From: an uncultured Dehalococcoidia bacterium | Lineage (GTDB): Bacteria; Chloroflexota; Dehalococcoidia; Lucifugimonadales; UBA826 | Direction: 5' to 3' | Length of the DNA stretch: 64,000 nucleotides | NCBI GenBank assembly: GCA_964500645.1 | Contig: CAZCOH010000002.1 | Coordinates: 51,735 to 115,734 of the forward strand | In this document: positions 8,484 through 40,727 of the stretch, piece by piece | Numbering within the stretch: position 1 is the first letter of the stretch | Layout of the letters: each line of letters begins with the position of its first letter | Position numbers and translations under genes: made by a program | Notes under the pieces: generated by a model | The model's database searches: none | What the model was told of the DNA's origin: nothing | What the model saw: the letters and a program-made list of their open reading frames with translations, nothing else

Positions 8484-10076
8484 ATGAAATATGACTTTAT
8501 AGTGGTGGGTGCAGGATCGTCTGGAGCAATAATAGCCTCAAGATTATCCGAAGACCCGTCCATTTCCGTACTACTATTAGAAGGGGGGCCAGATTACCCC
8601 GACTTCAGGAAATTACCTGACGATATTAAGTTTGGTTATTCAACCGGGACTTACATAGCAGTTGGCCCAGAACATGACTGGGGCTACACCGCAAAAGTTA
8701 ACAGTTATGAATCAGACGGACTATCCAGATACATTCGCACACCTCGAGGAAAAATTACCGGAGGCACGAGTTCTATAAATGGACAGATTTTTCTACGAGG
8801 ACTTTCACATGATTTTGAGCTGTGGAAAAGCTTGGGACTAACCAACTGGAGTTACGAGGAAGTTTTACCGTATTTCCGAAAACTAGAAACCGACTTGGAC
8901 TTCTCAGGAGATTTTCACGGAGAAGACGGTCCAATTATTGCACACCGGTTTCCAAGATCCGAATGGACCAGTTCACAGAATGGTTTTTTTGAATCTGCGA
9001 TTGACTTGGGATTTAAAGAAACACATGATATGAACTTCCCAGATGCTAGCGGAGTGGGGGCATTTCCATGTAACAATCCGAATGGCATACGGATCAGTAC
9101 GGCTGTTGGTCACCTATCACAAGCTCGCCACAGGCTTAATCTAACAGTCAGCCCCAATACCACGGTTAACAAAATTATTTTAGACAAACAAAAAGTATCC
9201 TCTTTAGAAGTTGAAAGTGCCGGAAATACCTACCTAGCCGCTGGAGAGAATGTTGTTCTTTGCGCCGGCGCTATAGCAAATCCGAAAATCCTAATGTTAT
9301 CTGGTATTGGCCCTATGAATCATTTAGAAAAATTAGGTATACCCACTCAGATCAACTTGCCTGGTATTGGACAAAACCTAAGTGACCACCCTATAAATTT
9401 TTTAAAAGCCTCTGTAAAAGATATAGATCACTTAGACACACAAAAGCCATGTCTACAGGTTGGCCTACGATACACTGCATCAGAATCTGATATTGAAGAC
9501 GACATGCTAATGTGGATGAATTCGTATTCGCTATCAACTGATTACCGCGAAGTTGAAACTATGACACCCCAAGGAAATCTACAAAGTCAGAACATAGATG
9601 GTATACAAATAGCAGTATCTGTTTACTTAGCTACTAGCAAAGGTAGTATCCAATTAAATTCATCAGATCCTGAAGACAGTCCGGACATATTTTTAAATCT
9701 TCTTGATACAGAAAAAGACGTTGAGAGAATGGCAGAAGGTATAAAAATCGCCAAAGATTTAATGGAAAGTAAGCCGATGAGACCTATAGTTCAAAACGTT
9801 ACCTCCCCAACAGATTATATTCTAAATTCGAGAGAATCCTTTCACCATTGGCTTCGAACCAATACTGTAACTGGTCATCACTTGACAGGTACATGCCGAA
9901 TGGGGTCAGACACTGACGAAATGTCAGTTGTTGACTCAAATGGCAAGGTCAAAGGTCTAAACAATTTATACATTGCTGACGCCTCAATAATGCCAGAATC
10001 CGTGAGAGCCAATACAAATGCAACAACAATGATGATAGGGGAAAAAATATCCGCCTATTTAGAAACCAATCACTAA
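8484..10076 (+). CDS. GMC family oxidoreductase (choline dehydrogenase-like flavoprotein)
   Basis: N-terminal FAD fold DFIVVGAGSSGAIIASRLSE, the GGTSSINGQ motif and a C-terminal HHLTGTCRMG active-site region. Confidence 0.85.
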   Translation: MKYDFIVVGAGSSGAIIASRLSEDPSISVLLLEGGPDYPDFRKLPDDIKFGYSTGTYIAVGPEHDWGYTAKVNSYESDGLSRYIRTPRGKITGGTSSINGQIFLRGLSHDFELWKSLGLTNWSYEEVLPYFRKLETDLDFSGDFHGEDGPIIAHRFPRSEWTSSQNGFFESAIDLGFKETHDMNFPDASGVGAFPCNNPNGIRISTAVGHLSQARHRLNLTVSPNTTVNKIILDKQKVSSLEVESAGNTYLAAGENVVLCAGAIANPKILMLSGIGPMNHLEKLGIPTQINLPGIGQNLSDHPINFLKASVKDIDHLDTQKPCLQVGLRYTASESDIEDDMLMWMNSYSLSTDYREVETMTPQGNLQSQNIDGIQIAVSVYLATSKGSIQLNSSDPEDSPDIFLNLLDTEKDVERMAEGIKIAKDLMESKPMRPIVQNVTSPTDYILNSRESFHHWLRTNTVTGHHLTGTCRMGSDTDEMSVVDSNGKVKGLNNLYIADASIMPESVRANTNATTMMIGEKISAYLETNH

Positions 10077-26781: not shown

Positions 26782-28110
26782 ATGTCATCAATAAATGAGT
26801 CAATCAAAAATCTTCTTACCAGGAAATCCATTTATCAGGCTTATCTTGATGTGGAAGTGGCGCTGGCCAAAGCACAAGCAAAGCAAGAAATAATACCTTT
26901 ATGGGCAGCAACAAAAATTCAAGAAAAAGGGAAATTAGAATTAATAGATTTAGATAATGTAGATGAAGGATTAAAAAAGACCGGGCATCCGCTTGTCCCT
27001 TTAATTTGGGAATTAGACAGGGTATGTGGAGATGATGCAGGCGGCTACATACACTGGGGAGCGACGACTCAGAACATAACGCAAACTGGAAAACTTTTAA
27101 TAGTTAAAAAATGCCATGACTTTTATTTAGAGGGCTTAGGTGAATTACTACTTACTTTGAGTGACTTGGCGGAAAAATCTAAGAACTATTCAATGCCAGG
27201 AAGGACACACGGGCAACATGCTGTTCCTGCAACGTTTGGGTATAAGGTTGCTGTTTGGATTGATGAATTAATTAGGCATGTATCGCGATTAAAAGAATGT
27301 GAAGATCGTGTATTTGTAGCAATGCTTGGAGGAGGTGCCGGTACTATGGCATCTGTAGGATTGGAAGGAATAGAAACCCAAAATCTCATGGCAAAGGAAT
27401 TGGGATTAGCGTCAATGTCTATGCCTTCTCGGACAATCGGTGATCATCTCACAGAATATATAACTCTTTTAGCAATGCTAGCGGCTACCTCGAGTAAGAT
27501 GGCTCGTGAGGTGTACACCATGATGAAGCAGGAATTTGGTGAAGTTGAGGAACCAGTACCACTGGGGGCTGTTGGATCTTCTACAATGCCTCAGAAAAGA
27601 AACCCACGATTGAGCCAAGATGTGGTGGCTTGGGCATCAGAGGTCCGGACATTTGTGCCTATGGCGTTGGAGGCTATGCAAACTGAACATGAGGCCGATA
27701 AAACTACAAGTATGATGATAAATTCAGCAATCGACAGAGTGTGTTTTTTAATCGCTCAGATTTTAGATAATCTAAATGAGATATTTTCAGGCCTCACGTT
27801 GTTTCCGGACAGGATGAGAATCAATCTAGATTTGTCGGGAGGGTTAATAATGTCCGAGAAAATAATGTTAGAGCTAGGGAAGGAAATGGGAAGACAAAAA
27901 GCTCATGATGTTGTTTATGATGCAGCCCAGAAATCTGTTAATGAAGGACGACCTTTCAGGGAGACTCTGTCTGAAGAAAGCGAAGTGTCAAACAGACTAA
28001 CACCAGAACAGATTTCAGATCTTCTTAATCCTGAGCACTATATCGGCTTGTCAACATATTTTGCCGAGGTTTATGCAAAAAAAGGCAGGGAAGTTGCTTC
28101 TAAATTGTAA
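26782..28110 (+). CDS. fumarate-lyase superfamily enzyme (adenylosuccinate lyase / 3-carboxy-cis,cis-muconate cycloisomerase-like)
   Basis: GSSTMPQKRNP signature loop and HWGATTQNI motif. Confidence 0.8.
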   Translation: MSSINESIKNLLTRKSIYQAYLDVEVALAKAQAKQEIIPLWAATKIQEKGKLELIDLDNVDEGLKKTGHPLVPLIWELDRVCGDDAGGYIHWGATTQNITQTGKLLIVKKCHDFYLEGLGELLLTLSDLAEKSKNYSMPGRTHGQHAVPATFGYKVAVWIDELIRHVSRLKECEDRVFVAMLGGGAGTMASVGLEGIETQNLMAKELGLASMSMPSRTIGDHLTEYITLLAMLAATSSKMAREVYTMMKQEFGEVEEPVPLGAVGSSTMPQKRNPRLSQDVVAWASEVRTFVPMALEAMQTEHEADKTTSMMINSAIDRVCFLIAQILDNLNEIFSGLTLFPDRMRINLDLSGGLIMSEKIMLELGKEMGRQKAHDVVYDAAQKSVNEGRPFRETLSEESEVSNRLTPEQISDLLNPEHYIGLSTYFAEVYAKKGREVASKL

Positions 28111-28123
28111 AGTGACTTTTTGT

Positions 28124-29341
28124 TCAGATTAGAGGAATCGGTAGATCAGCAGGGATAGCTCCGCTTTGTACCATACGTGAGATATCTATGTCAGAAATGC
28201 CTATCTCTTTTAGAACTTGATGAGTATCTGCTCCAAATGAAGGGGGAACAATGTCGATGAGTTTGTTTCCTGACATAGATACAGGGTTACCTGGCCAGGT
28301 AGTATTTCCCCAATTTGTTTGATCTTTTGGAGTGTCATCAGAGGAATATTCATAATCTGTTTTTATAACCATTCCATTCTCTTGGTTGTAAGGATCTGAA
28401 TGAAGGTCTAGAGCCGTGTTATTACGAACAGCAGGAATTCCTGCTGTATTCAAAATAATTTCCCAATCTGAAACAGACTTTGTTTCAAAGATTTTCTCTA
28501 TTAAATGAACTTCACCTGACTGTATTGCCTTACAAAAAGCTGGAATTGCCTTGAAATTGTCACGTTCTGATTTAGTGGAAGCAGAAATGAAGATCCATCC
28601 GTCACTGCATTCGTAAAGTCTGTTGCAACAGTCTTTACCTCTAGCCCCGGGTCCACCTATCTCTTCCCTATTAAAACCATCGTAATCAATGTTATAAGAA
28701 CCGGTAATTGTTGATGAGGTATATGACAGGGCGGCTTCGACTTTTTGTCCTCTACCTGTTTTGTTGCGTTCCAATATAGCTAACATAATTGCGAATGCGG
28801 CTGATATTCCTGTTCCGTAATCATTCAAAGTAAATGTAGCCGGACGAGGTTTTATAGTTTCACTATTGGGATCGGCCGGAATTCCGGAATTTCGCAGTTG
28901 TACGCCTGTGGCGGCCTGGGCATTTTGTTCAAACCCTGGTCTCAATTGCCACGGGCCTTCGTGTCCGAAGCAATTTATTGAGCCGTAAATAAGAGATGGA
29001 TTTCTCTCGGAGAGCCTTTCGTATCCGATTCCAAGTCGATCGGCCACTCCTTTTCTAAATCCTTCTATGATTACATCAGCAGAATCTGCCAATTTCAGGA
29101 ATGCTTCAATACCTCCTGGCTTATTCAAATTAAGTGAAATACTTCTTTTTCCACGCCCTACGTCAAGCCAAGGTGTAAGTTGAGGGAGACGGTGATCCGG
29201 GTCTATTTTTATTACTTCTGCGCCATACTGTGCCAAAGTTCTTCCGCAAGTAGGACCTGCAAGGACAATACAGAGATCTAGAACCCGTATTCCTTCCAAC
29301 GGCGGTGATTCAGTCATTTGAACCTGCTCTTTGCTATTCAT
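28124..29341 (-). CDS. family III CoA-transferase (CaiB/BaiF/Frc-like), catalytic-Asp-containing module
   Basis: LEGIRVLDLCIVLAGPTCGRTLAQYGAEVIKID N-terminal motif and LNDYGTG...LERNKTGRGQ active-site region. I prefer ATG 29341, which overlaps the upstream stop as ATGAATAG, over the track's ATG at 29380. Confidence 0.85.
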   Translation of the reverse strand: MNSKEQVQMTESPPLEGIRVLDLCIVLAGPTCGRTLAQYGAEVIKIDPDHRLPQLTPWLDVGRGKRSISLNLNKPGGIEAFLKLADSADVIIEGFRKGVADRLGIGYERLSERNPSLIYGSINCFGHEGPWQLRPGFEQNAQAATGVQLRNSGIPADPNSETIKPRPATFTLNDYGTGISAAFAIMLAILERNKTGRGQKVEAALSYTSSTITGSYNIDYDGFNREEIGGPGARGKDCCNRLYECSDGWIFISASTKSERDNFKAIPAFCKAIQSGEVHLIEKIFETKSVSDWEIILNTAGIPAVRNNTALDLHSDPYNQENGMVIKTDYEYSSDDTPKDQTNWGNTTWPGNPVSMSGNKLIDIVPPSFGADTHQVLKEIGISDIDISRMVQSGAIPADLPIPLI

Positions 29342-30416
29342 GGCTATTTCCAATGTATGGCGCGCCACCAGAAACTGCACCCGGATTAGACAGAGTCCTA
29401 ACTAAAACCCCGGGTTGTTTCATTTTCCCGAAACGAGGATCATTAATTTCTATAATCGCACTAGATCGCAAGGCGTGTTCTTCATTAACCCACTCGTCGA
29501 TACTTCGACACATAGTAACCGGTAGGCCCACATCTGACATTAAAGATTCCCATTCCAGAGCGGTTCGTTGTTTCCAAACTGCATTAATTTTGTATTTCCA
29601 AGAAGCTATCAAGGAGGAATCAGGATTGGAGAGCCCGATACTAGAAATCTCTTTCATCCATTCAGGATGCTCTATAACATCAAGAAATATCTCTAAAAAC
29701 CTTGGGATCGATAGATTTACATTTACCCATCTATTGTCTGAGCATTCATAGAACCTCTCGATAATTGGATGGCCTTCTTGCCTACCATGACTCCTCTTTG
29801 CATGGCGTATTAGAGCAGTTCCCATACCTTGGAACATAGCATCATGTATTGGTACCGTGATTCTTTGACCTATTTTTGTGAGATCTCTTTGAATAAGAGC
29901 TGCTACGACTGCGGGAGCAGCAGTCATGGCAGCAAAGGTGCTGGCGTAGTGAAGACTATGAAAAGAGGGTCCCTCTCCTTCAACAGGGAATTCACCTGAA
30001 GGATTGAGAGCATAGATCGCTGCAGATGCGGCAACTAATTCTTCTCTGGCGGGTATATTCTCGTATTTATGGCCTTCCCGGAATGCAGGCAACGAGACAG
30101 TAATTAGGCCTGCATTTGTTTTAGAAAGGATATCTGACGTCAGTCCTATATCATCTGCCTGATGTGGATTTAAGCACTCGATTAAAACATCAGCGTCACT
30201 AAGAAATTCAAGAATAGTTTCTAAGGAAAATGAAGTGTTGATTTGAGTCTTACCCCTGTTCCAAACAGCGTGTTCAGCAGTGCCTTCTAGGGGATTTCCT
30301 TCTTCAGGGCAAATTTTTAACACGTCGGCACCTTGGTCAGCCAACAGCATTCCTAAAATATGACCCGCAGGATAGTTACTGAGTTCGACTACCTTAAATT
30401 GATCTAGGACACCCAA
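29334..30416 (-). CDS. family III CoA-transferase paralogue without an Asp at the catalytic position
   Basis: FKVVELSNYPAGHILGMLLADQGADVLKI N-terminal motif. The equivalent active-site stretch reads LHYASTFAAMTAAPAVVAALIQRDLTKIGQ, with no acidic residue. Confidence 0.8.
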   Translation of the reverse strand: MGVLDQFKVVELSNYPAGHILGMLLADQGADVLKICPEEGNPLEGTAEHAVWNRGKTQINTSFSLETILEFLSDADVLIECLNPHQADDIGLTSDILSKTNAGLITVSLPAFREGHKYENIPAREELVAASAAIYALNPSGEFPVEGEGPSFHSLHYASTFAAMTAAPAVVAALIQRDLTKIGQRITVPIHDAMFQGMGTALIRHAKRSHGRQEGHPIIERFYECSDNRWVNVNLSIPRFLEIFLDVIEHPEWMKEISSIGLSNPDSSLIASWKYKINAVWKQRTALEWESLMSDVGLPVTMCRSIDEWVNEEHALRSSAIIEINDPRFGKMKQPGVLVRTLSNPGAVSGGAPYIGNSHE

Positions 30417-30512
30417 TATAAATATGCCTTTCTACTAATCAGTAAATCTTGCCGAGTTACAGATGGGCCCCGAGTTTGTACTCTATGGTGGACCCACCTG
30501 CAAATGTTTAAC

Positions 30513-32156
30513 TTATTTGCGATATTGGTCTATTCCGACGGTAGCAGCCGTGGGACCAGATGGGAATACCAGTGTTTTGGCCCTATCTGCTCCTACTACA
30601 ACTAGATCGATATTGTCTGCACTATGAAGCAGGGGTACTTCAATTGCCAATCTTTCCTTTTCTGTCTTGTCTTTGAGATAGTGCCATTGTTCATCAACTC
30701 TCGCATCATTAAGGGGCATATACTGAATCATTTTTCCGAGACTGTGGTTGGCATGCTTGTGTATAAACTCTTTGGCATCTTGCTTTGTGAAGCCCTCGTT
30801 GCCTACCGGCCCTGCTACGTCCGGAGGCATGAATATAAGTCTCTCATGACCCTGTGCATGACTACCCCCCAAGGTGGTATTTCCGAAGGTTATGCCGTAT
30901 GCCAATGTTTTTAGTAACCCTTCTGCTGATGTATTACCTTGGTCCTGAACATCAAGCTCTCCATCTGTAACAAAAATAGAAATAGCACTTTCTTTTCCGT
31001 CAAACCCACGATCCTGAGAATAGCTCGGCCAGGGGCTCATATCTTCATTTTCAGCCACGCATTGAATAAATTTCCTTGTCGTGCCTATGGTGTCCATATC
31101 CATTTTGTTCGGATACCACATGCCTATATTTCGGAGACACAAATAAAAGGCTCTACCTATAGTTATGTTTATCTCGTTTTCTTTTCCAGGTCCAAGAGCT
31201 GACCGGGGATTCAAGCCAACCTCTTTGGCGATTGGACCGTTAACAACAAGAATAGGGGCGTGCGGGCTAGTAGACATAAGTAAAGATTTGCCGCCGTGGG
31301 CGCCCATTTCTGATAAGCATTTCACGCCGGCGATTATAATTGGCATGTGTTCCGGCTTCGCCCCGGCGAGAGCGGAGTTTATTGCTATTTTCTCAACGGT
31401 GGCGACACCAAAACCCGGGGGCATATCGCACACAATATCGTCCGATTTCAGACCTGTTCCAGAAATTAAGTCAGCCACTGCTTCATCTGTTGCGGGATAT
31501 AAAGGAAGGGCATCCGACCACTCTCTTTTATTGAATTCCGCATTCATCTTCAAAACAGCGTCGTATCTATCCTCTCCTTCAAATCGTATTTTAGATTCTT
31601 CCTCTTCCTCTGTTACGGATGAGATTCCCTCCGATGTCAGGCAAGCTATAAGATCGTCTATGGCTTCTTCAGTTTGTGAGACACACAGATCATCTGCTAG
31701 ATTGCGGTAAATACGAGGAACAATAACAAATTGGAGGTCTGGCATCCCGAAGGTTTTGCTACTTGCGATTGCATCGTCTTTAAAACGCCCAGATACAATT
31801 GGAACCGCAGGTTTTCCCATTTTCTCAATTTCTATCATGTCGTGGCACATCCACGACGCGCAGGTCCCTCAATCAGCTGTGGCTCCGATTACAACGTCGC
31901 ATTCTTCTCCCGCTTGTTTCACTATGGGTGGAGGAGTAGGGTAATTTCCCCCAGTGTAAAAATTGATTTTAACGTTGGAAAATCTTTCCTGAATTATTTC
32001 TCCGGCCCTGTTGAGAGCTAAGTCCCCACCATGGGTTCCACTCCATACTAAACCTATTGTTAAGTCATTTAAGGTACTTGGACGAGGATTAGTTTTTAGT
32101 ACATTCATCATGCCTCGTTGCTGAGCAACTGGGTTTGAAACTTCAAGAAGGTGCAT
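30513..32156 (-). CDS. candidate selenoprotein (in-frame UGA at 31869..31871 read as Sec); GrdB/PrdB-like or UGSC-like Sec loop plus ~450-aa domain of unknown function
   Basis: Track ORFs 31869..32156 and 30513..31850 share strand and frame. They are separated only by TGA plus 6 sense codons, giving ...CDVVIGATAD-U-GTCASWMCHDMIEIEKMGKPAVPIV... A strong SD (GGAGGA) precedes ATG 32156 and none precedes ATG 31850. A SECIS-like hairpin lies 11 nt after the UGA. Confidence 0.65.
31839..31857 (-). promoter_or_regulatory. candidate bacterial SECIS hairpin
   Basis: Minus-strand RNA reads UGA-GGGACCUGCGC-GUCGUGG-AUGUG-CCACGAC. This is a perfect 7-bp stem with a 5-nt loop containing G and U, and the stem starts 11 nt after the UGA. 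Confidence 0.55.
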
Positions 32157-32345
32157 ATTGATCCTCCAGACAGATATCTAATTATTTATAGAAAAGTCAC
32201 ATATTTAATTAATTCATCGTGATTATACAAGAGGTCATAAATTCAAGTTTTGTCTATGCTCACACTATTGAACGTTACAATCAGAGAGAGTTGGAACGGT
32301 ATAATTCTGGGCAATGGTGATGACTTCACGATAAAGGCCGAAGAA

Positions 32346-32942
32346 ATGAAACTGCTTGTAGCAACAAGAAATGAAGGAAAAATTTTGGAATTGGCTGAAA
32401 TGCTAAAGGATCTTCCCTATGATTTGGTATCTCTCGCCGATTTAAATATTGATCATGAAGTTGACGAAACTGGCTCTTCATTCGAACAAAATGCGATTCT
32501 CAAAGCAGAAGAATACGGCTTTTTAGCGTCTATGATGACGATAGCGGATGACTCGGGAATAGAAGTAGATGCTTTGGGAGGGGAACCTGGTGTCTTTTCT
32601 GCAAGGTATGGTGGAGATGGTTTAGATGACCAAGATCGGAATAAGTTGCTTTTAAAAAATGTATCAAATGTAGAGGAAGAACTATTAACAGCTAGATTTA
32701 GGTGCGTTGTAGCAATCTATCAGCCATGTCAGGAGACAATAACATTTGATGGTAAAGTGGAGGGATACATTACTAGGGAACAAAGGGGAAGTAATGGGTT
32801 TGGGTATGATCCCCTGTTTTTTTACCCACCAAAAGGAAAGACCCTAGCGGAAATACCTTCCCGTGAAAAACATGAGGTTTCCCATAGGGGCTCTGCAGTA
32901 AAAAAAGCTAGAGAATACCTAATTTCGCAAGCGTCTATATAA
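32346..32942 (+). CDS. rdgB: non-canonical purine NTP pyrophosphatase (RdgB/HAM1 family)
   Basis: MKLLVATRNEGKILE..., DDSGIEVDALGGEPGVFSARY and GFGYDPLF motifs. I prefer ATG 32346 to the track's TTG at 32250. Confidence 0.85.
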   Translation: MKLLVATRNEGKILELAEMLKDLPYDLVSLADLNIDHEVDETGSSFEQNAILKAEEYGFLASMMTIADDSGIEVDALGGEPGVFSARYGGDGLDDQDRNKLLLKNVSNVEEELLTARFRCVVAIYQPCQETITFDGKVEGYITREQRGSNGFGYDPLFFYPPKGKTLAEIPSREKHEVSHRGSAVKKAREYLISQASI

Positions 32943-33977: not shown

Positions 33978-34892
33978 GTGATTACTATATACACAGATGG
34001 GGCTTGTTTAGGTAATCCTGGACCAGGTGGTTGGGGGGCCGTGATCTTAGGTGATGGACCTCGACGAGTTCTTCATGGGAACGATCCCGATACAACAAAC
34101 AATAGAATGGAGATAAAGGCGGTAGTAAAAGCCCTGCAAAGCATTCCATTGAAGTCAGAAGTGACTGTTTATTCAGATTCATCTTATGTAATTAATACAA
34201 TGACAAAGAACTGGAAGCGTAAAAAAAACAATGATATGTGGGACCTTTTAGATAAAGAGGTTTTGATAAGAAATGTAAGTTGGGAATGGGTTAAAGGTCA
34301 TGCGGGAGACCCATTGAATGAGGAGGCCGATAGGTTGGCCCATGGAGAGGCGACGGGAACCATAGATTCTAAAGAAAAAAGAGATGAGGTAAACATGAGT
34401 GCCATAAAGGAAAATCTCGAAGAAAAACTTACTCATGTTGATGATTCCGGTAAAGCAAGTATGGTAGATGTGGGAGCGAAACCGGATACGGAGAGGGTTG
34501 CGGAGGCGGTGGGAACGGTAAAAATGCTACCAAGCACCTTGCAATTGGTTAAAGAGAATTCTCTTGAGAAAGGTGATGTGCTGGCTATTGCCAAAATTGC
34601 AGGAATTATGGGTGCAAAGCAGACATCAAATCTCATACCTCTTTGTCACCCACTACCTATAACGCACGTAGATCTAAGTTTTGAAATAAATTCAAAAGAT
34701 TCGGCCGTAGAAATTAAAAGTATGGCTAAAACGCAGAGTAAAACCGGGGTGGAGATGGAGGCCTTAACTGCGGTTTCTATAGCCGCTTTAACCATCTATG
34801 ATATGTGTAAGGCTGTAGATAAGGGCATGGAGATGAGTACGAAACTTCTTAGTAAGAAGGGAGGTAGATCAGGTGATGTCTATCTTGGCTAG
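33978..34892 (+). CDS. single ORF encoding RNase HI domain fused to MoaC (cyclic pyranopterin monophosphate synthase)
   Basis: Residues 1-125 are [20 protein letters not shown]...TNNRMEIKA...YSDSSYV...[20 protein letters not shown] (RNase HI; the D, E, D, D catalytic residues all appear present). Residues ~150-304 are [18 protein letters not shown]...[28 protein letters not shown]...[27 protein letters not shown] (MoaC). There is an internal SD plus ATG at 34395. The fusion depends on the length of the A6 run at 34375..34380. Confidence 0.7.
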
Positions 34893-37390: not shown

Positions 37391-38152
37391 TTGGATTACA
37401 TTAGTCAGAATTTGGACATAGAAATATTGGCTAAAACTGATGTAGGGAAAAAAAGAACTAGAAATGAGGACAATTTCATTCAGCTTCCAAAATCTATTGG
37501 AGAAATAAAGGCGGTTTTGGGAGTTGCTGATGGGATGGGTGGGCATGCTGCAGGAGATGTTGCGAGTAGAATCGCGGTTGAAACTTTCCAGGAAGTGTTT
37601 TCTAGAACTAGTATCGGACATCGGCAGATCAAGGATTTACTGAATGACACTTTCTTGATGGCTAACAAGGAAATTGTAAAAAAAGGAAAAACTAACTCCG
37701 AAGGGTCAATGGGGACGACGTGTACAGTTGCTGTCTTTACAGGTGTTGAGTGTCATATAGGCCATGTTGGTGATAGCAGGGCATACTTGATGAGAGATGG
37801 AGAATTGAACCAGTTGACCGACGATCACAGTTGGGTTGCGCAATTGGTGAAAGATGGACATATAACGAACGAACAAGCGCGAGTTCATCCAAACCGTAAC
37901 GTTATAACCAAGGCTCTTGGTATTGACGATGATGTGAAGTCCGACTTCATAAAATTAGAAATACATTCTGGGGATCGATTATTAATATGTTCGGATGGTC
38001 TTCATGGCTTGGTGGAAGATTCAACAATTTGCGATTTCTTGAGAGAGGGATCGGCTGAAGAGATGGTTGATAGGCTAATTGAAGAAGCAAATGACAATGG
38101 TGGGCATGACAACATAACTGTAGCCATTGCCATGTTTGAGCAGGCTATCTAG
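37391..38152 (+). CDS. PP2C-family Ser/Thr protein phosphatase (Stp-like)
   Basis: RTRNEDN, GVADGMGGHAAGDVAS, GDSRAYL, CSDGL and DNITV motifs. TTG start. Confidence 0.85.
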   Translation: MDYISQNLDIEILAKTDVGKKRTRNEDNFIQLPKSIGEIKAVLGVADGMGGHAAGDVASRIAVETFQEVFSRTSIGHRQIKDLLNDTFLMANKEIVKKGKTNSEGSMGTTCTVAVFTGVECHIGHVGDSRAYLMRDGELNQLTDDHSWVAQLVKDGHITNEQARVHPNRNVITKALGIDDDVKSDFIKLEIHSGDRLLICSDGLHGLVEDSTICDFLREGSAEEMVDRLIEEANDNGGHDNITVAIAMFEQAI

Positions 38153-40727
38153 TTCCTAGAAGTTTTTTAGAAATAGAGCCACTTTGTTTCATAGAAGAGA
38201 TAGTTTCTTCGTCGTATCCTAGGCCTTTCAGGATTTCTTCATTATGTTCTCCAAATAACGGACTGGATATAGAAGGAAGACTAGTACGGTTAGAAAATCT
38301 CCAGGTTGGCCTAACTGTTCTATGAGTACCTACAATAGAGTGAGTCACAGAGATAAAAACGTTTCTTTCTTTGATGTGATCATCATCTAGAAGAGAAGCA
38401 GCTGTTGCCACTGATGATGCTGTGATTTGTTTTGACTGAAGTAAGTTCTCTAATTCGTCAGCATCTTTCTCGCGGGTCCATTCTGATATCACTTTATCTA
38501 TCTGTTCCGTATATTTTAGTCTGCCCTGCAAAGTCGAATATTCCCGGTTATAGAGTCTGGGATCTTCTACGATTTTTTGTAGGGCTTCCCACTCTTTGTT
38601 ACTTTGACAATCAATGGCGATCCATCTATCAGACACTTCACCTACGGGATTTCTGTCAGGCCCTAGAACTATTCTTGGTTTATCGTCTGTCTTGCATGGG
38701 TATATATTATGAGGAATAGAAGAATTGGAACTGTTGCCTAGCCTTAATTCCATGGGAAATCCTAATGATTCCGCTATAAAAAATTCTCCAACAAGGCCAG
38801 TGACTCCATCTCTTTGAGGCAGGACACAATAGCATCCGTAGCCTGTTTTCTCTCTTCTTAACAGCGCGGCGGCAATAGCAGCAGCACATGTGGCCCCTGC
38901 GATAGGATCGCCATAGGAAATTCCTGTTTTGTGTGGTTCTCCTCCCTTATATCCTTGTAGTGCGACAAGCCCTCCCATTTGCTCTATAGTTGGGCCAAAT
39001 CCCACCATGGATGAATCTGAACCCTCGTGACCAAAACCTGGCATGGTGACGTATATGATTTTGGGATTAATGGCTCTTATGTCTTGATAACCTAAAGCGT
39101 TTCGATCAGCCACCCCGGAAGACCAATTTTCAAGGAAGACATCTGAGGTGGCTATTAGCTTTTTCAGTGCTTCTAGGCCACTTTTTTGTTTTATATCGAC
39201 GGCGAACCCTCTCTTACCCCGGTTATATTCACTAAAGTATGCGGATATGTTTATGTCTGGTTCCCCAGCACGATGTTGTCTTGTGGCGGTTCTGATGGGG
39301 TCGGGAAAAGTAGGCCCTTCTACCTTTATAACATCCGCGCCCATATCCGCGAGGAACCGGGCAGCGTAGGGGCCAGACCAGACTTGAGTCATGTCAATAA
39401 CTCGAAGGCCCTTAAAAGGAGGGGCATATGGGTCCTCACATTCTGTTGATTCCGTAATATTGGTTGTATTTTTAGGAGTTTTAGATTGGCTACGTAATGT
39501 TTCAAGTACTTCTTTTGTGTGTTGTCCTAAGGTTGGCGCAGGCCTAAACACCCCTTTATCTGGAAGTGCTTTTTTTCCTCCTTTATCAGGGCTAAACCAT
39601 ATTGGTCCAGACGGGACGGGGTGATCACCTAATACTGGATGAGTAACTTTCTGCCAGAATTCTATTTCTTGATAGTGGCGCCAATTTAAAAGGTCTCTAG
39701 GTTCTGGGATCATGGCAAACGGAGCGCGGTAAGAATTTGCTACTTCAAAAATCTCCTCAGCGTTATGTTCTAAAGTAAATAATGGTACTAAATGTCTTAA
39801 TAAATCGTCAGCTTCTTGACTCCAAGTATTGTCTTTGAAAAGAGGATCATCTTTTAATGTTGAGGCGTTTATTGTGTCCAAAACAGAGTGGGTTTGACGA
39901 GGCATGGATGCAACACCGATCCATCCATTTTTGCAAGGGTGGACGCCCCATAAGGCCCTTGGATTGTTGCCTCCTCTCGGTTGTTCAGATCCATACCAAA
40001 GGGCGGCTGGGCCTGCCCCTTCAAGGGTGGCGGCCTGAACTTCTTGTAAAGATATGTCAAGAATATCTCCTTTACCGGTTCTCTCGGCTGCGAATAAAGC
40101 GGTTAATGTACCACCGAGTGCGTGAAGACTTCCTTGTATGTGTGCCTGATGTCCTGCCGTCATAAGTGGTTCCCTGTCCGGGTCACCTGTTAGGTACATC
40201 TGGCCACCAGATGCAAAACTTGTCATTGCACTGGTTTTCCATAAGGATTTAGGTCCAGTTTGTCCGTAGGGAGATATCCTTGTGACACACAGTGATGGTT
40301 TGATATTCGAAAGCTCTTCAAGATCTATGCCGAATTCTGTCAGATATCCTGGCTGGTAGCTATCAACTACGGCGTCTGAGCTGAGAACAAGATCCTTTAA
40401 TATACGAATATCCTTCGGTTGATTTAAGTCTAGGCGTACGGATTTTTTTCCTGTGCCCATGTATGCAAATAGGATACTTTTTTCAATATCATACTGTGAT
40501 GTTAAGGGGTTACCTCCATCTCCATAAGGAGGGAGTCGCCTGAGGATATTCCCCTCCGGTGGCTCAACGAGTATAACTTCGGCACCGTAGGCTGCCATCA
40601 ACCTTCCAACGTTGGCGGCAGCTACGTCGTTTCCAAATTCCACTATTCTCAAACCACTGAGAATTTGATCCAATGTTTTTGTCTCCCTCAAAAGTTTAAT
40701 TGAATATTGGCAGGACCCTGTCGGCAA
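38145..40727 (-). CDS. tandem fusion of two family III CoA-transferase modules
   Basis: 860 aa. Module 1 starts LSGLRIVEFGNDVAAANVGRLMAAYGAEVILVE and module 2 starts FKGLRVIDMTQVWSGPYAARFLADMGADVIKVE. Only module 2 has the GDxxxG active-site Asp (YGDPIAGATCAAAIAAALLRREKTGYG). An alternative TTG start at 40673 lies behind GAGGGAG. Confidence 0.85.
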   Translation of the reverse strand: MPTGSCQYSIKLLRETKTLDQILSGLRIVEFGNDVAAANVGRLMAAYGAEVILVEPPEGNILRRLPPYGDGGNPLTSQYDIEKSILFAYMGTGKKSVRLDLNQPKDIRILKDLVLSSDAVVDSYQPGYLTEFGIDLEELSNIKPSLCVTRISPYGQTGPKSLWKTSAMTSFASGGQMYLTGDPDREPLMTAGHQAHIQGSLHALGGTLTALFAAERTGKGDILDISLQEVQAATLEGAGPAALWYGSEQPRGGNNPRALWGVHPCKNGWIGVASMPRQTHSVLDTINASTLKDDPLFKDNTWSQEADDLLRHLVPLFTLEHNAEEIFEVANSYRAPFAMIPEPRDLLNWRHYQEIEFWQKVTHPVLGDHPVPSGPIWFSPDKGGKKALPDKGVFRPAPTLGQHTKEVLETLRSQSKTPKNTTNITESTECEDPYAPPFKGLRVIDMTQVWSGPYAARFLADMGADVIKVEGPTFPDPIRTATRQHRAGEPDINISAYFSEYNRGKRGFAVDIKQKSGLEALKKLIATSDVFLENWSSGVADRNALGYQDIRAINPKIIYVTMPGFGHEGSDSSMVGFGPTIEQMGGLVALQGYKGGEPHKTGISYGDPIAGATCAAAIAAALLRREKTGYGCYCVLPQRDGVTGLVGEFFIAESLGFPMELRLGNSSNSSIPHNIYPCKTDDKPRIVLGPDRNPVGEVSDRWIAIDCQSNKEWEALQKIVEDPRLYNREYSTLQGRLKYTEQIDKVISEWTREKDADELENLLQSKQITASSVATAASLLDDDHIKERNVFISVTHSIVGTHRTVRPTWRFSNRTSLPSISSPLFGEHNEEILKGLGYDEETISSMKQSGSISKKLLGTR

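Follow-up and report, generated by a model that had tools for sequence, protein, structure and literature searches.

A UGSC-family selenoprotein fused to a recurrent partner domain, and its CoA-transferase neighbours, in a SAR202 genome

UGSC-containing proteins have been on record since 2007-2008 as selenoproteins of unknown function, and in the Global Ocean Sampling (GOS) data they were among the most abundant selenoprotein families, with 255 selenocysteine (Sec) forms against 21 cysteine (Cys) forms (PMC2398784, PMC1976440). Recent reviews still class the family as uncharacterised (PMC9312934, PMC13188914). A "UGSC/Unknown_1" fusion was named in the GOS selenoproteome paper (PMC2398784, Fig. 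S1A), which contains no gene-context, expression or structural analysis of it. Two further described systems invite comparison. The GrdB/PrdB proteins carry Sec in a UxxC-type motif and work with a larger substrate-binding partner, and PrdB-like forms occur in aerobic marine bacteria too; the benzylsuccinate CoA-transferase BbsEF (PDB 9fn0) is a pair of family III subunits in which a single subunit carries the catalytic Asp. Here we describe a gene for a 547-residue UGSC-family protein with an additional C-terminal domain, encoded in a 64,000-nucleotide stretch of DNA ("the window") from an uncultured Dehalococcoidia bacterium of the SAR202 type (contig CAZCOH010000002.1, positions 51,735 to 115,734). 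A CoA-transferase pair follows the gene on the same strand, and a first-pass annotation had read the two as an operon for a possible selenium-dependent step on CoA-activated acids. We instead favour, with a probability of roughly 0.68, a self-contained two-domain selenoenzyme that is mainly its own transcription unit and beside which the CoA-transferase pair lies through inherited synteny.

The selenocysteine codon and the UGSC domain

On the minus strand, two open reading frames (ORFs) of 95 aa (31869..32156) and 445 aa (30513..31850) lie in the same frame and are split by a single TGA (31869-31871). Read as one frame (30513-32156) with TGA translated as Sec (U), they give 547 residues with the motif GATAD-U-GTC-ASWMCHD. 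A scan with one genome per species yielded 249 relatives, and codon 96 and the hairpin behind it were compared in the best 80 of these 249. The homologues in these 80 genomes aligned to residues 1-546 of the protein, the codon aligned with position 96 was TGA in 80/80, and a hairpin 11 nt past the TGA was present in all 80 loci in the form GTCGTGG-ATGKK-CCACGAC. Two loci (L013 and L014) had the stem GTCATGG/CCATGAC, a change on both arms that preserves pairing (one compensatory pair). The stem is 7 bp long and GC-rich with a 5-nt loop, and its folding energy by itself is unexceptional (z = -0.9). The Pfam UGSC match runs across the in-frame TGA, and a distant full-length homologue (P0127) has Cys at the Sec position (ADCGSC). 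The best 120 protein-database homologues were all ORFs of about 440-446 aa starting just past the TGA; gene callers therefore stop at the Sec codon nearly everywhere.

The source genome assembly (label G000; 2.07 Mb, 93% complete) holds selA (543 bits; C18:20064-21389), selB (320.6 bits; C3:16810) and selD (388 and 382 bits), all of which pass the curated cut-offs. The two selD copies (C111:1756-2679 and C32:3904-4827) each contain one in-frame TGA, as Sec-type SelD. The candidate selenoprotein of the first-pass annotation was thus borne out by the invariant TGA, the conserved hairpin, the Cys form and the presence of selA, selB and selD, and these comparisons show that the 547-codon gene encodes a genuine selenoprotein, with UGA-96 decoded as Sec with the help of the downstream hairpin. 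The aerobic setting that the annotation had described also agrees with the genome, which is of the aerobic SAR202 type, and the biochemistry of the selenoprotein is undescribed. In many metatranscriptome runs, 31-44-nt contigs of exactly the SECIS region (31833-31874) were found at high depth; they probably reflect near-invariance of this region across SAR202 species and not a separate small RNA.

The PF24696 (UGSC) profile matched residues 7-174 at 96.4 bits, against a cut-off of 25, and the motif with in-frame TGA reads ADUGTC at codon 96. NF041046 ("UGSC family (seleno)protein") matched at 86.9 bits, under its equivalog cut-off of 125 bits. Judged by these profiles, the protein is a new UGSC-X fusion member of a known but orphan family. 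It shares with that family the N-terminal 170 residues, the motif U-G-T/S-C, a large excess of Sec over Cys forms and abundance in aquatic metagenomes. It differs from it in adding a C-terminal domain of 370 residues (here called X), which takes it to 547 residues where stand-alone UGSC proteins typically have about 150-190, and in scoring below the equivalog cut-off. The full-length AF2 model had a pLDDT of 81.7. Its UGSC part is five-stranded alpha/beta/alpha with Sec at the start of helix 97-112, and a Foldseek search of the whole model against the PDB returned only generic flavodoxin-like matches, all to the N-domain. The UGSC domain is accordingly predicted to have a flavodoxin-like alpha/beta fold, whereas the guess made in 2008 was a thioredoxin-like fold.

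Domain X and its pairing with UGSC

Domain X had no Pfam, NCBIfam or PDB match by sequence, and PDB sequence searches with the whole protein and with a 128-sequence X profile returned nothing. The family is nevertheless large, with 3581 representatives of 50%-identity clusters at E<=1e-3 and at least 8000 matching proteins in the 90% database, where all those with a source name are labelled hypothetical. X occurs as a stand-alone protein of about 350 aa, as UGSC-X, as X-UGSC (cut at the Sec codon), as an X-X tandem and as an X-FTR fusion. A tandem X-X protein is P0178 (714 aa), and in P0261 (494 aa) X is fused to a ferredoxin:thioredoxin reductase (FTR) catalytic domain (FeThRed_B) instead of UGSC.

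All six stand-alone X genes that were looked up adjoin a TGA-split UGSC gene (6/6). In 76 of 88 loci taken from metagenomes and further lineages, a sample skewed toward close matches of the X profile used, a UGSC match adjoins X, and 74 of the 76 have the in-frame stop (D*GSC). The window's own genome contains three UGSC-X modules: the window fusion, a second fusion 37% identical to it (C1:73297-74952), and an X gene followed by a separate TGA-split UGSC gene (C65:7050-8558). In the 88 diverse loci, the genes directly beside the module (124 in all) matched 113 Pfam families, the commonest only 6 times, which gives no third partner of the UGSC-X module. These architectures and gene orders show that across bacteria X recurs as the partner of UGSC, whether in fusions of either order or as the product of an adjacent gene. 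The Unknown_1 part of the GOS fusion may correspond to X.

The conserved residues of X are D215, N306, N330, R335, D353, K362, E369-N370-E371 and W376, and C366 is nearly invariant. Modelled alone with AF2, X reached a pLDDT of 89.5 and a pTM of 0.90. The structure prediction and Foldseek search that had been proposed for the C-terminal domain thus gave a confident model and no convincing fold match: against the PDB, the best hits of X alone had a TM of 0.22-0.25 with rmsd >10 Å, by which no fold or function is assignable. Class I fumarate hydratase, Toblerone-fold cyanuric acid hydrolase and RidA were considered as fold candidates and set aside, their TM of 0.2-0.25 being too weak.

The CoA-transferase pair, its conservation and its transcription

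The layout described in the first-pass annotation, with a 96-bp gap, a coupled CoA-transferase pair and a converging fumarate-lyase-superfamily gene, agrees with the coordinates in Table 1. The longest ORFs of the two CoA-transferase genes share 47 nt, and subunit 2 probably has its true start close to where subunit 1 stops. The lyase gene converges on the pair across a gap of 13 nt. On the other side, rdgB, moaA, moaC and agmatinase belong to the same block, which is syntenic in close relatives. Directly 3' of moaA, one 304-codon ORF (33978-34892) matches both RNase HI (residues 2-123) and MoaC (162-296) fully, and the same double match occurs in close relatives. An Rfam scan of 28000-32400 matched no family.

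Table 1. Features of the locus, in coordinates of the window
Feature	Position	Strand	Remark
UGSC-X fusion selenoprotein gene, 547 codons	30513..32156	-	ATG at 32156 with GGAGG upstream
In-frame TGA = selenocysteine 96, motif U-G-T-C	31869..31871	-	TGA kept in 80/80 related loci
SECIS-like hairpin	31833..31863	-	core stem GTCGTGG/CCACGAC (31857-31839), loop ATGTG, 11 nt past UGA
UGSC domain, residues 7-174	31635..32138	-	PF24696, 96.4 bits
Unnamed X domain, residues ~190-547	30516..31589	-	no Pfam, NCBIfam or PDB sequence match
Terminator-like GC-rich hairpin, no U-run	30457..30503	-	begins 10 nt past the selenoprotein stop codon
Intergenic gap, 96 nt, between selenoprotein gene and first CoA-transferase gene	30417..30512	-	ORF map
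Family III CoA-transferase subunit 1, TTG start at 30416	29334..30416	-	PF02515, 165.7 bits
Family III CoA-transferase subunit 2	28124..29380	-	PF02515, 248.6 bits
Lyase_1/ADSL_C gene, fumarate-lyase superfamily (adenylosuccinate lyase / carboxymuconate cycloisomerase-like)	26782..28110	+	domain matches
rdgB (XTP/dITP diphosphatase), divergent	32250..32942	+	domain match

Aligned to a solved racemase/transferase, subunit 1 lacks the catalytic Asp and has STF where relatives have D. Subunit 2, aligned to SUGCT (9br6), retains it in LNDYGTG. With two PF02515 matches and the Asp in one subunit, the pair qualifies as a heteromeric family III CoA-transferase and resembles BbsEF. Unlike BbsEF, it has many counterparts in its own genome, where such pairs or fusions number about a dozen. 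Genome-wide, 43 CoA_transf_3 matches were counted in 2.07 Mb (about 2% of genes), many in tandem pairs or in fused double modules of about 800 aa; a further locus of the window, 38145-40727, was noted together with this abundance. In the pair checked, an Asp-less first unit is followed by an Asp-containing second one, which suggests that this organism uses heteromeric family III transferases as a standard unit. Since the genome has about 40 CoA-transferase genes, one of them can easily come to lie beside another gene by chance. The other two UGSC-X modules adjoin either dnaN or a 3-hydroxyisobutyrate-dehydrogenase-like gene, and an MDMPI-like gene, none of them a CoA-transferase.

A separate array in the same genome was considered as a better case for a selenoprotein working with CoA-transferases, and was rejected. 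On contig C29 (4088-11168; L180), closely packed genes on one strand, 23-38 nt apart, run from a luciferase-like monooxygenase through two family III CoA-transferases, an enoyl-CoA hydratase (ECH) and a 119-aa unknown protein to a PF07355 (GRDB-type) selenoprotein and another luciferase-like monooxygenase. An in-frame TGA interrupts the selenoprotein gene at 9328-9330 (VPT-U-PAC), and a hairpin lies 11 nt beyond it. One in-frame TGA was found in homologues of this selenoprotein in 23/41 relatives, where a luciferase-like neighbour was commoner than CoA-transferase/ECH, and the CoA-transferase/ECH linkage was absent in 20 relatives that carry the PF07355 selenoprotein. Since this linkage is unconserved, adjoining a CoA-transferase means little in these genomes.

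A maximum-likelihood tree of 81 fusion proteins placed the CoA-transferase-adjacent loci in one 20-row clade (SH-aLRT 100), in which 18/20 have the adjacency. In the sister clade of 61 rows, only L074 has transferases nearby, two of them at +2/+3 behind an opposite-strand gene. The pair itself is downstream only in the closest relatives, and rdgB, moaA, moaC, the lyase gene and obg are conserved there too; because these genes are kept equally, the adjacency of the pair amounts to block synteny. In six more genomes the +1 position is taken by another, single CoA-transferase of 403 aa, which is only 26-32% identical and has other flanking genes. We also counted CoA-linked families (CoA-transferase I and III, SucC/D, ECH and AMP-binding). 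Around the SAR202 fusion loci they made up 49/307 genes within two positions, compared with 22/822 further out. Around the 88 other loci they made up 7/267 within two genes, compared with 4/247 further out, which is the background rate, and three of these seven near genes are one contig counted thrice (L088, L089, L101). Linkage was thus found in one clade only, with other lineages at background. Elsewhere, nine genomes have the order SBP, DUF4286, MBL lactonase, UGSC-X gene, DegT aminotransferase, ten have ADH, FGE-sulfatase, UGSC-X gene, DUF1697, and many further neighbourhoods are singletons.

The association with CoA-transferases that the first-pass annotation had put forward therefore holds in 18/20 genomes of one clade, but in only 1/61 of the sister clade and at background elsewhere. 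A lack of conserved linkage had been named as grounds for dropping the idea; conservation within the clade is high, so the idea is weakened and not refuted. The locus does not stand for a general selenium-plus-CoA pathway, since the linkage is confined to one SAR202 subgroup; the other two UGSC-X modules of this genome also lack an adjacent CoA-transferase. We regard the linkage as a lineage-restricted adjacency, with the operon idea weakly supported at best.

In the gap, the hairpin (30503-30457) folds at -35 kcal/mol for a 126-nt stretch (z = -2.9), and 3/200 shuffles fold as well. Comparable hairpins lie 3' of the gene in most lineages, and in L008, L038 and L039 they have a canonical stem and U-run. 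In 12 marine metatranscriptomes, assembled contigs span 30430/30453 to 32278, and one RNA contig stops at 30453, 4 nt beyond the hairpin. The transferase genes (2.3 kb, 28124-30416) were represented by only three short pieces at depth 2-3 in 2/12 runs. No contig bridged 30417-30512 in the 12 runs, although contigs cannot prove absence or termination. Of the co-transcription that had been proposed, selenoprotein RNA was thus present in 12 runs and transferase RNA in two, with the gap never bridged. In our reading, the selenoprotein gene is strongly expressed and largely monocistronic, with read-through into the transferase genes at most attenuated.

Weighing the explanations

For a self-contained UGSC-X selenoenzyme, a possible mechanism can be outlined. 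The Sec-x-x-Cys centre, placed at the helix start of the flavodoxin-like domain, would cycle between selenol/thiol and selenenylsulfide, and would either supply reducing equivalents to, or attack, a small polar substrate bound by X. The pocket in X would present the conserved Arg, Lys and Glu-Asn-Glu and the single Cys366; the invariant polar residues of X and Cys366, which hardly varies, point to a ligand that is small and polar. The gene would be mainly its own transcription unit, having its own Shine-Dalgarno sequence, a stable hairpin past the stop and in situ RNA coverage far above that of the genes that follow. The CoA-transferase pair would lie downstream through synteny inherited within one SAR202 subclade, and not through a need of the selenoenzyme.

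Several observations weigh against this explanation. The gap hairpin lacks a U-run, and a consensus scan of the 96-nt gap detected no sigma-70-like promoter and no canonical terminator. An active terminator and promoter in the gap had been named as the finding that would separate the two transcription units; a strong hairpin is there, but no promoter was found. The RNA evidence consists of assembled contigs, which are a poor gauge of depth and transcript ends. The gaps of L008 (36 nt) and L013 (11 nt) are too short for a separate promoter, so that read-through into the transferase is likely in these two. A CoA-transferase lies directly 3' in 18/20 genomes of the clade, above the roughly 2% expected of a random neighbour, and six of the 18 are the non-orthologous single 403-aa transferase in other flanks. 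In 16 SAR202-type genomes, the module is embedded in a split succinyl-CoA synthetase operon, again a CoA-linked setting, in the order sucC, a 170-aa protein without family, UGSC-X, a YjdN-like VOC gene and sucD (L038 6331-11152, also L029, L030, L032, L036, L040, L044, L055, L060, L062, L067 and others), and the sucD beside UGSC-X was the sole sucD in the three genomes checked. No tRNA-Sec scored above the Rfam cut-off in the 93%-complete assembly, where the top matches were tRNA-Ser; for the selenoprotein status this is the single gap. The redox mechanism, finally, is one that we infer only.

The strongest competitor is a clade-specific operon, in which UGSC-X and the heteromeric CoA-transferase would serve one pathway, the selenoenzyme reducing or cleaving an organic acid after its activation to a CoA thioester, and in which the hairpin would merely attenuate transcription or stabilise the upstream message so that the selenoprotein is made in excess. 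We consider it unlikely, at about one chance in several. The shared strand, the CoA-transferase at +1 in 18/20 including the non-orthologous replacement, the short gaps of L013 and L008 and the lack of a promoter-like site in the gap all fit it, as do the low-level transferase RNA pieces in the same run as selenoprotein RNA (X28) and the distant locus L088, which has a family I CoA-transferase directly 3' of the module. Yet the clade represents a single evolutionary event, in which rdgB, moaA, moaC, the lyase gene and obg are equally conserved as block synteny; outside SAR202 no enrichment is seen; the 61-row sister clade lacks the link, as do both same-genome paralogues; some 40 CoA-transferase genes make adjacency cheap; and RNA coverage falls sharply at the hairpin. 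That one SAR202 subclade recruited UGSC-X into a heteromeric family III CoA-transferase pathway is more doubtful still. The residual case for such coupling to CoA thioesters comes from the non-orthologous transferase at +1 and, as a second sign, the sucC/sucD embedding. If true, an aerobe would be reducing or cleaving a CoA-activated organic acid by selenium-dependent chemistry, for which no precedent has been described.

The framing of the first-pass annotation, a GrdB/PrdB-type selenoprotein B of a Stickland-like reductase with its usual partners replaced, was not borne out and is very improbable. The UxxC motif and the almost exclusive use of Sec, as in PrdB and GrdB, would suit it, and it might be said that no alternative known family accounts for the protein. 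What decides against it is that the UGSC profile matches while the PF07355 GRDB profile gives no match to the 547-aa protein even at E<=10; with a PF07355 signal of nil, GrdB/PrdB membership was rejected. The genuine PF07355 selenoprotein on contig C29 of the same genome is unrelated to it in sequence. As the annotation had correctly observed, Grd/Prd partners are missing: none occurred among the ten neighbouring genes scanned, and GrdA, GrdC, GrdE and PrdA were found neither among the window neighbours nor among the top families of the 124 module neighbours. The protein thus differs from GrdB/PrdB in having no detectable sequence relationship to them, none of these partners and no sign of a pyruvoyl group, and no pyruvoyl-proprotein family occurs among its neighbours. 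Least credible of all is that the TGA is a real stop and the locus two genes (95 aa and 445 aa) or a pseudogene. Gene callers do annotate the 445-aa part only, and tRNA-Sec went undetected in the assembly. Against this stand the conservation of frame, TGA and hairpin in 80/80 species-level genomes, a UGSC profile match that continues through the TGA from residue 7 to 174, the existence of Cys homologues, and the Sec machinery genes, including two selD copies that themselves have an in-frame TGA.

Two further ideas about the setting of UGSC-X were tried and dropped. A thioredoxin-reductase-driven system would have in its favour a single TrxR-like gene beside the module (L088) and a single fusion to FTR-B (P0261), and nothing of the kind occurs among the top neighbour families. 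A glyoxalase system was considered from VOC genes 3' in 27 loci and MBL genes 5' in 7, and was dropped because the VOC proteins are YjdN-like and the MBL proteins lactonase-like.

With the self-contained UGSC-X selenoenzyme as the preferred explanation, the locus represents a well-expressed SAR202 member of the UGSC family that joins UGSC and its recurrent partner domain in one protein. The CoA-transferases are unfit as a clue to its function, and neighbourhood arguments that involve CoA-transferases in SAR202, with about 40 of them per 2-Mb genome, need a background control. The combination of UGSC and X is itself a worthwhile experimental target.

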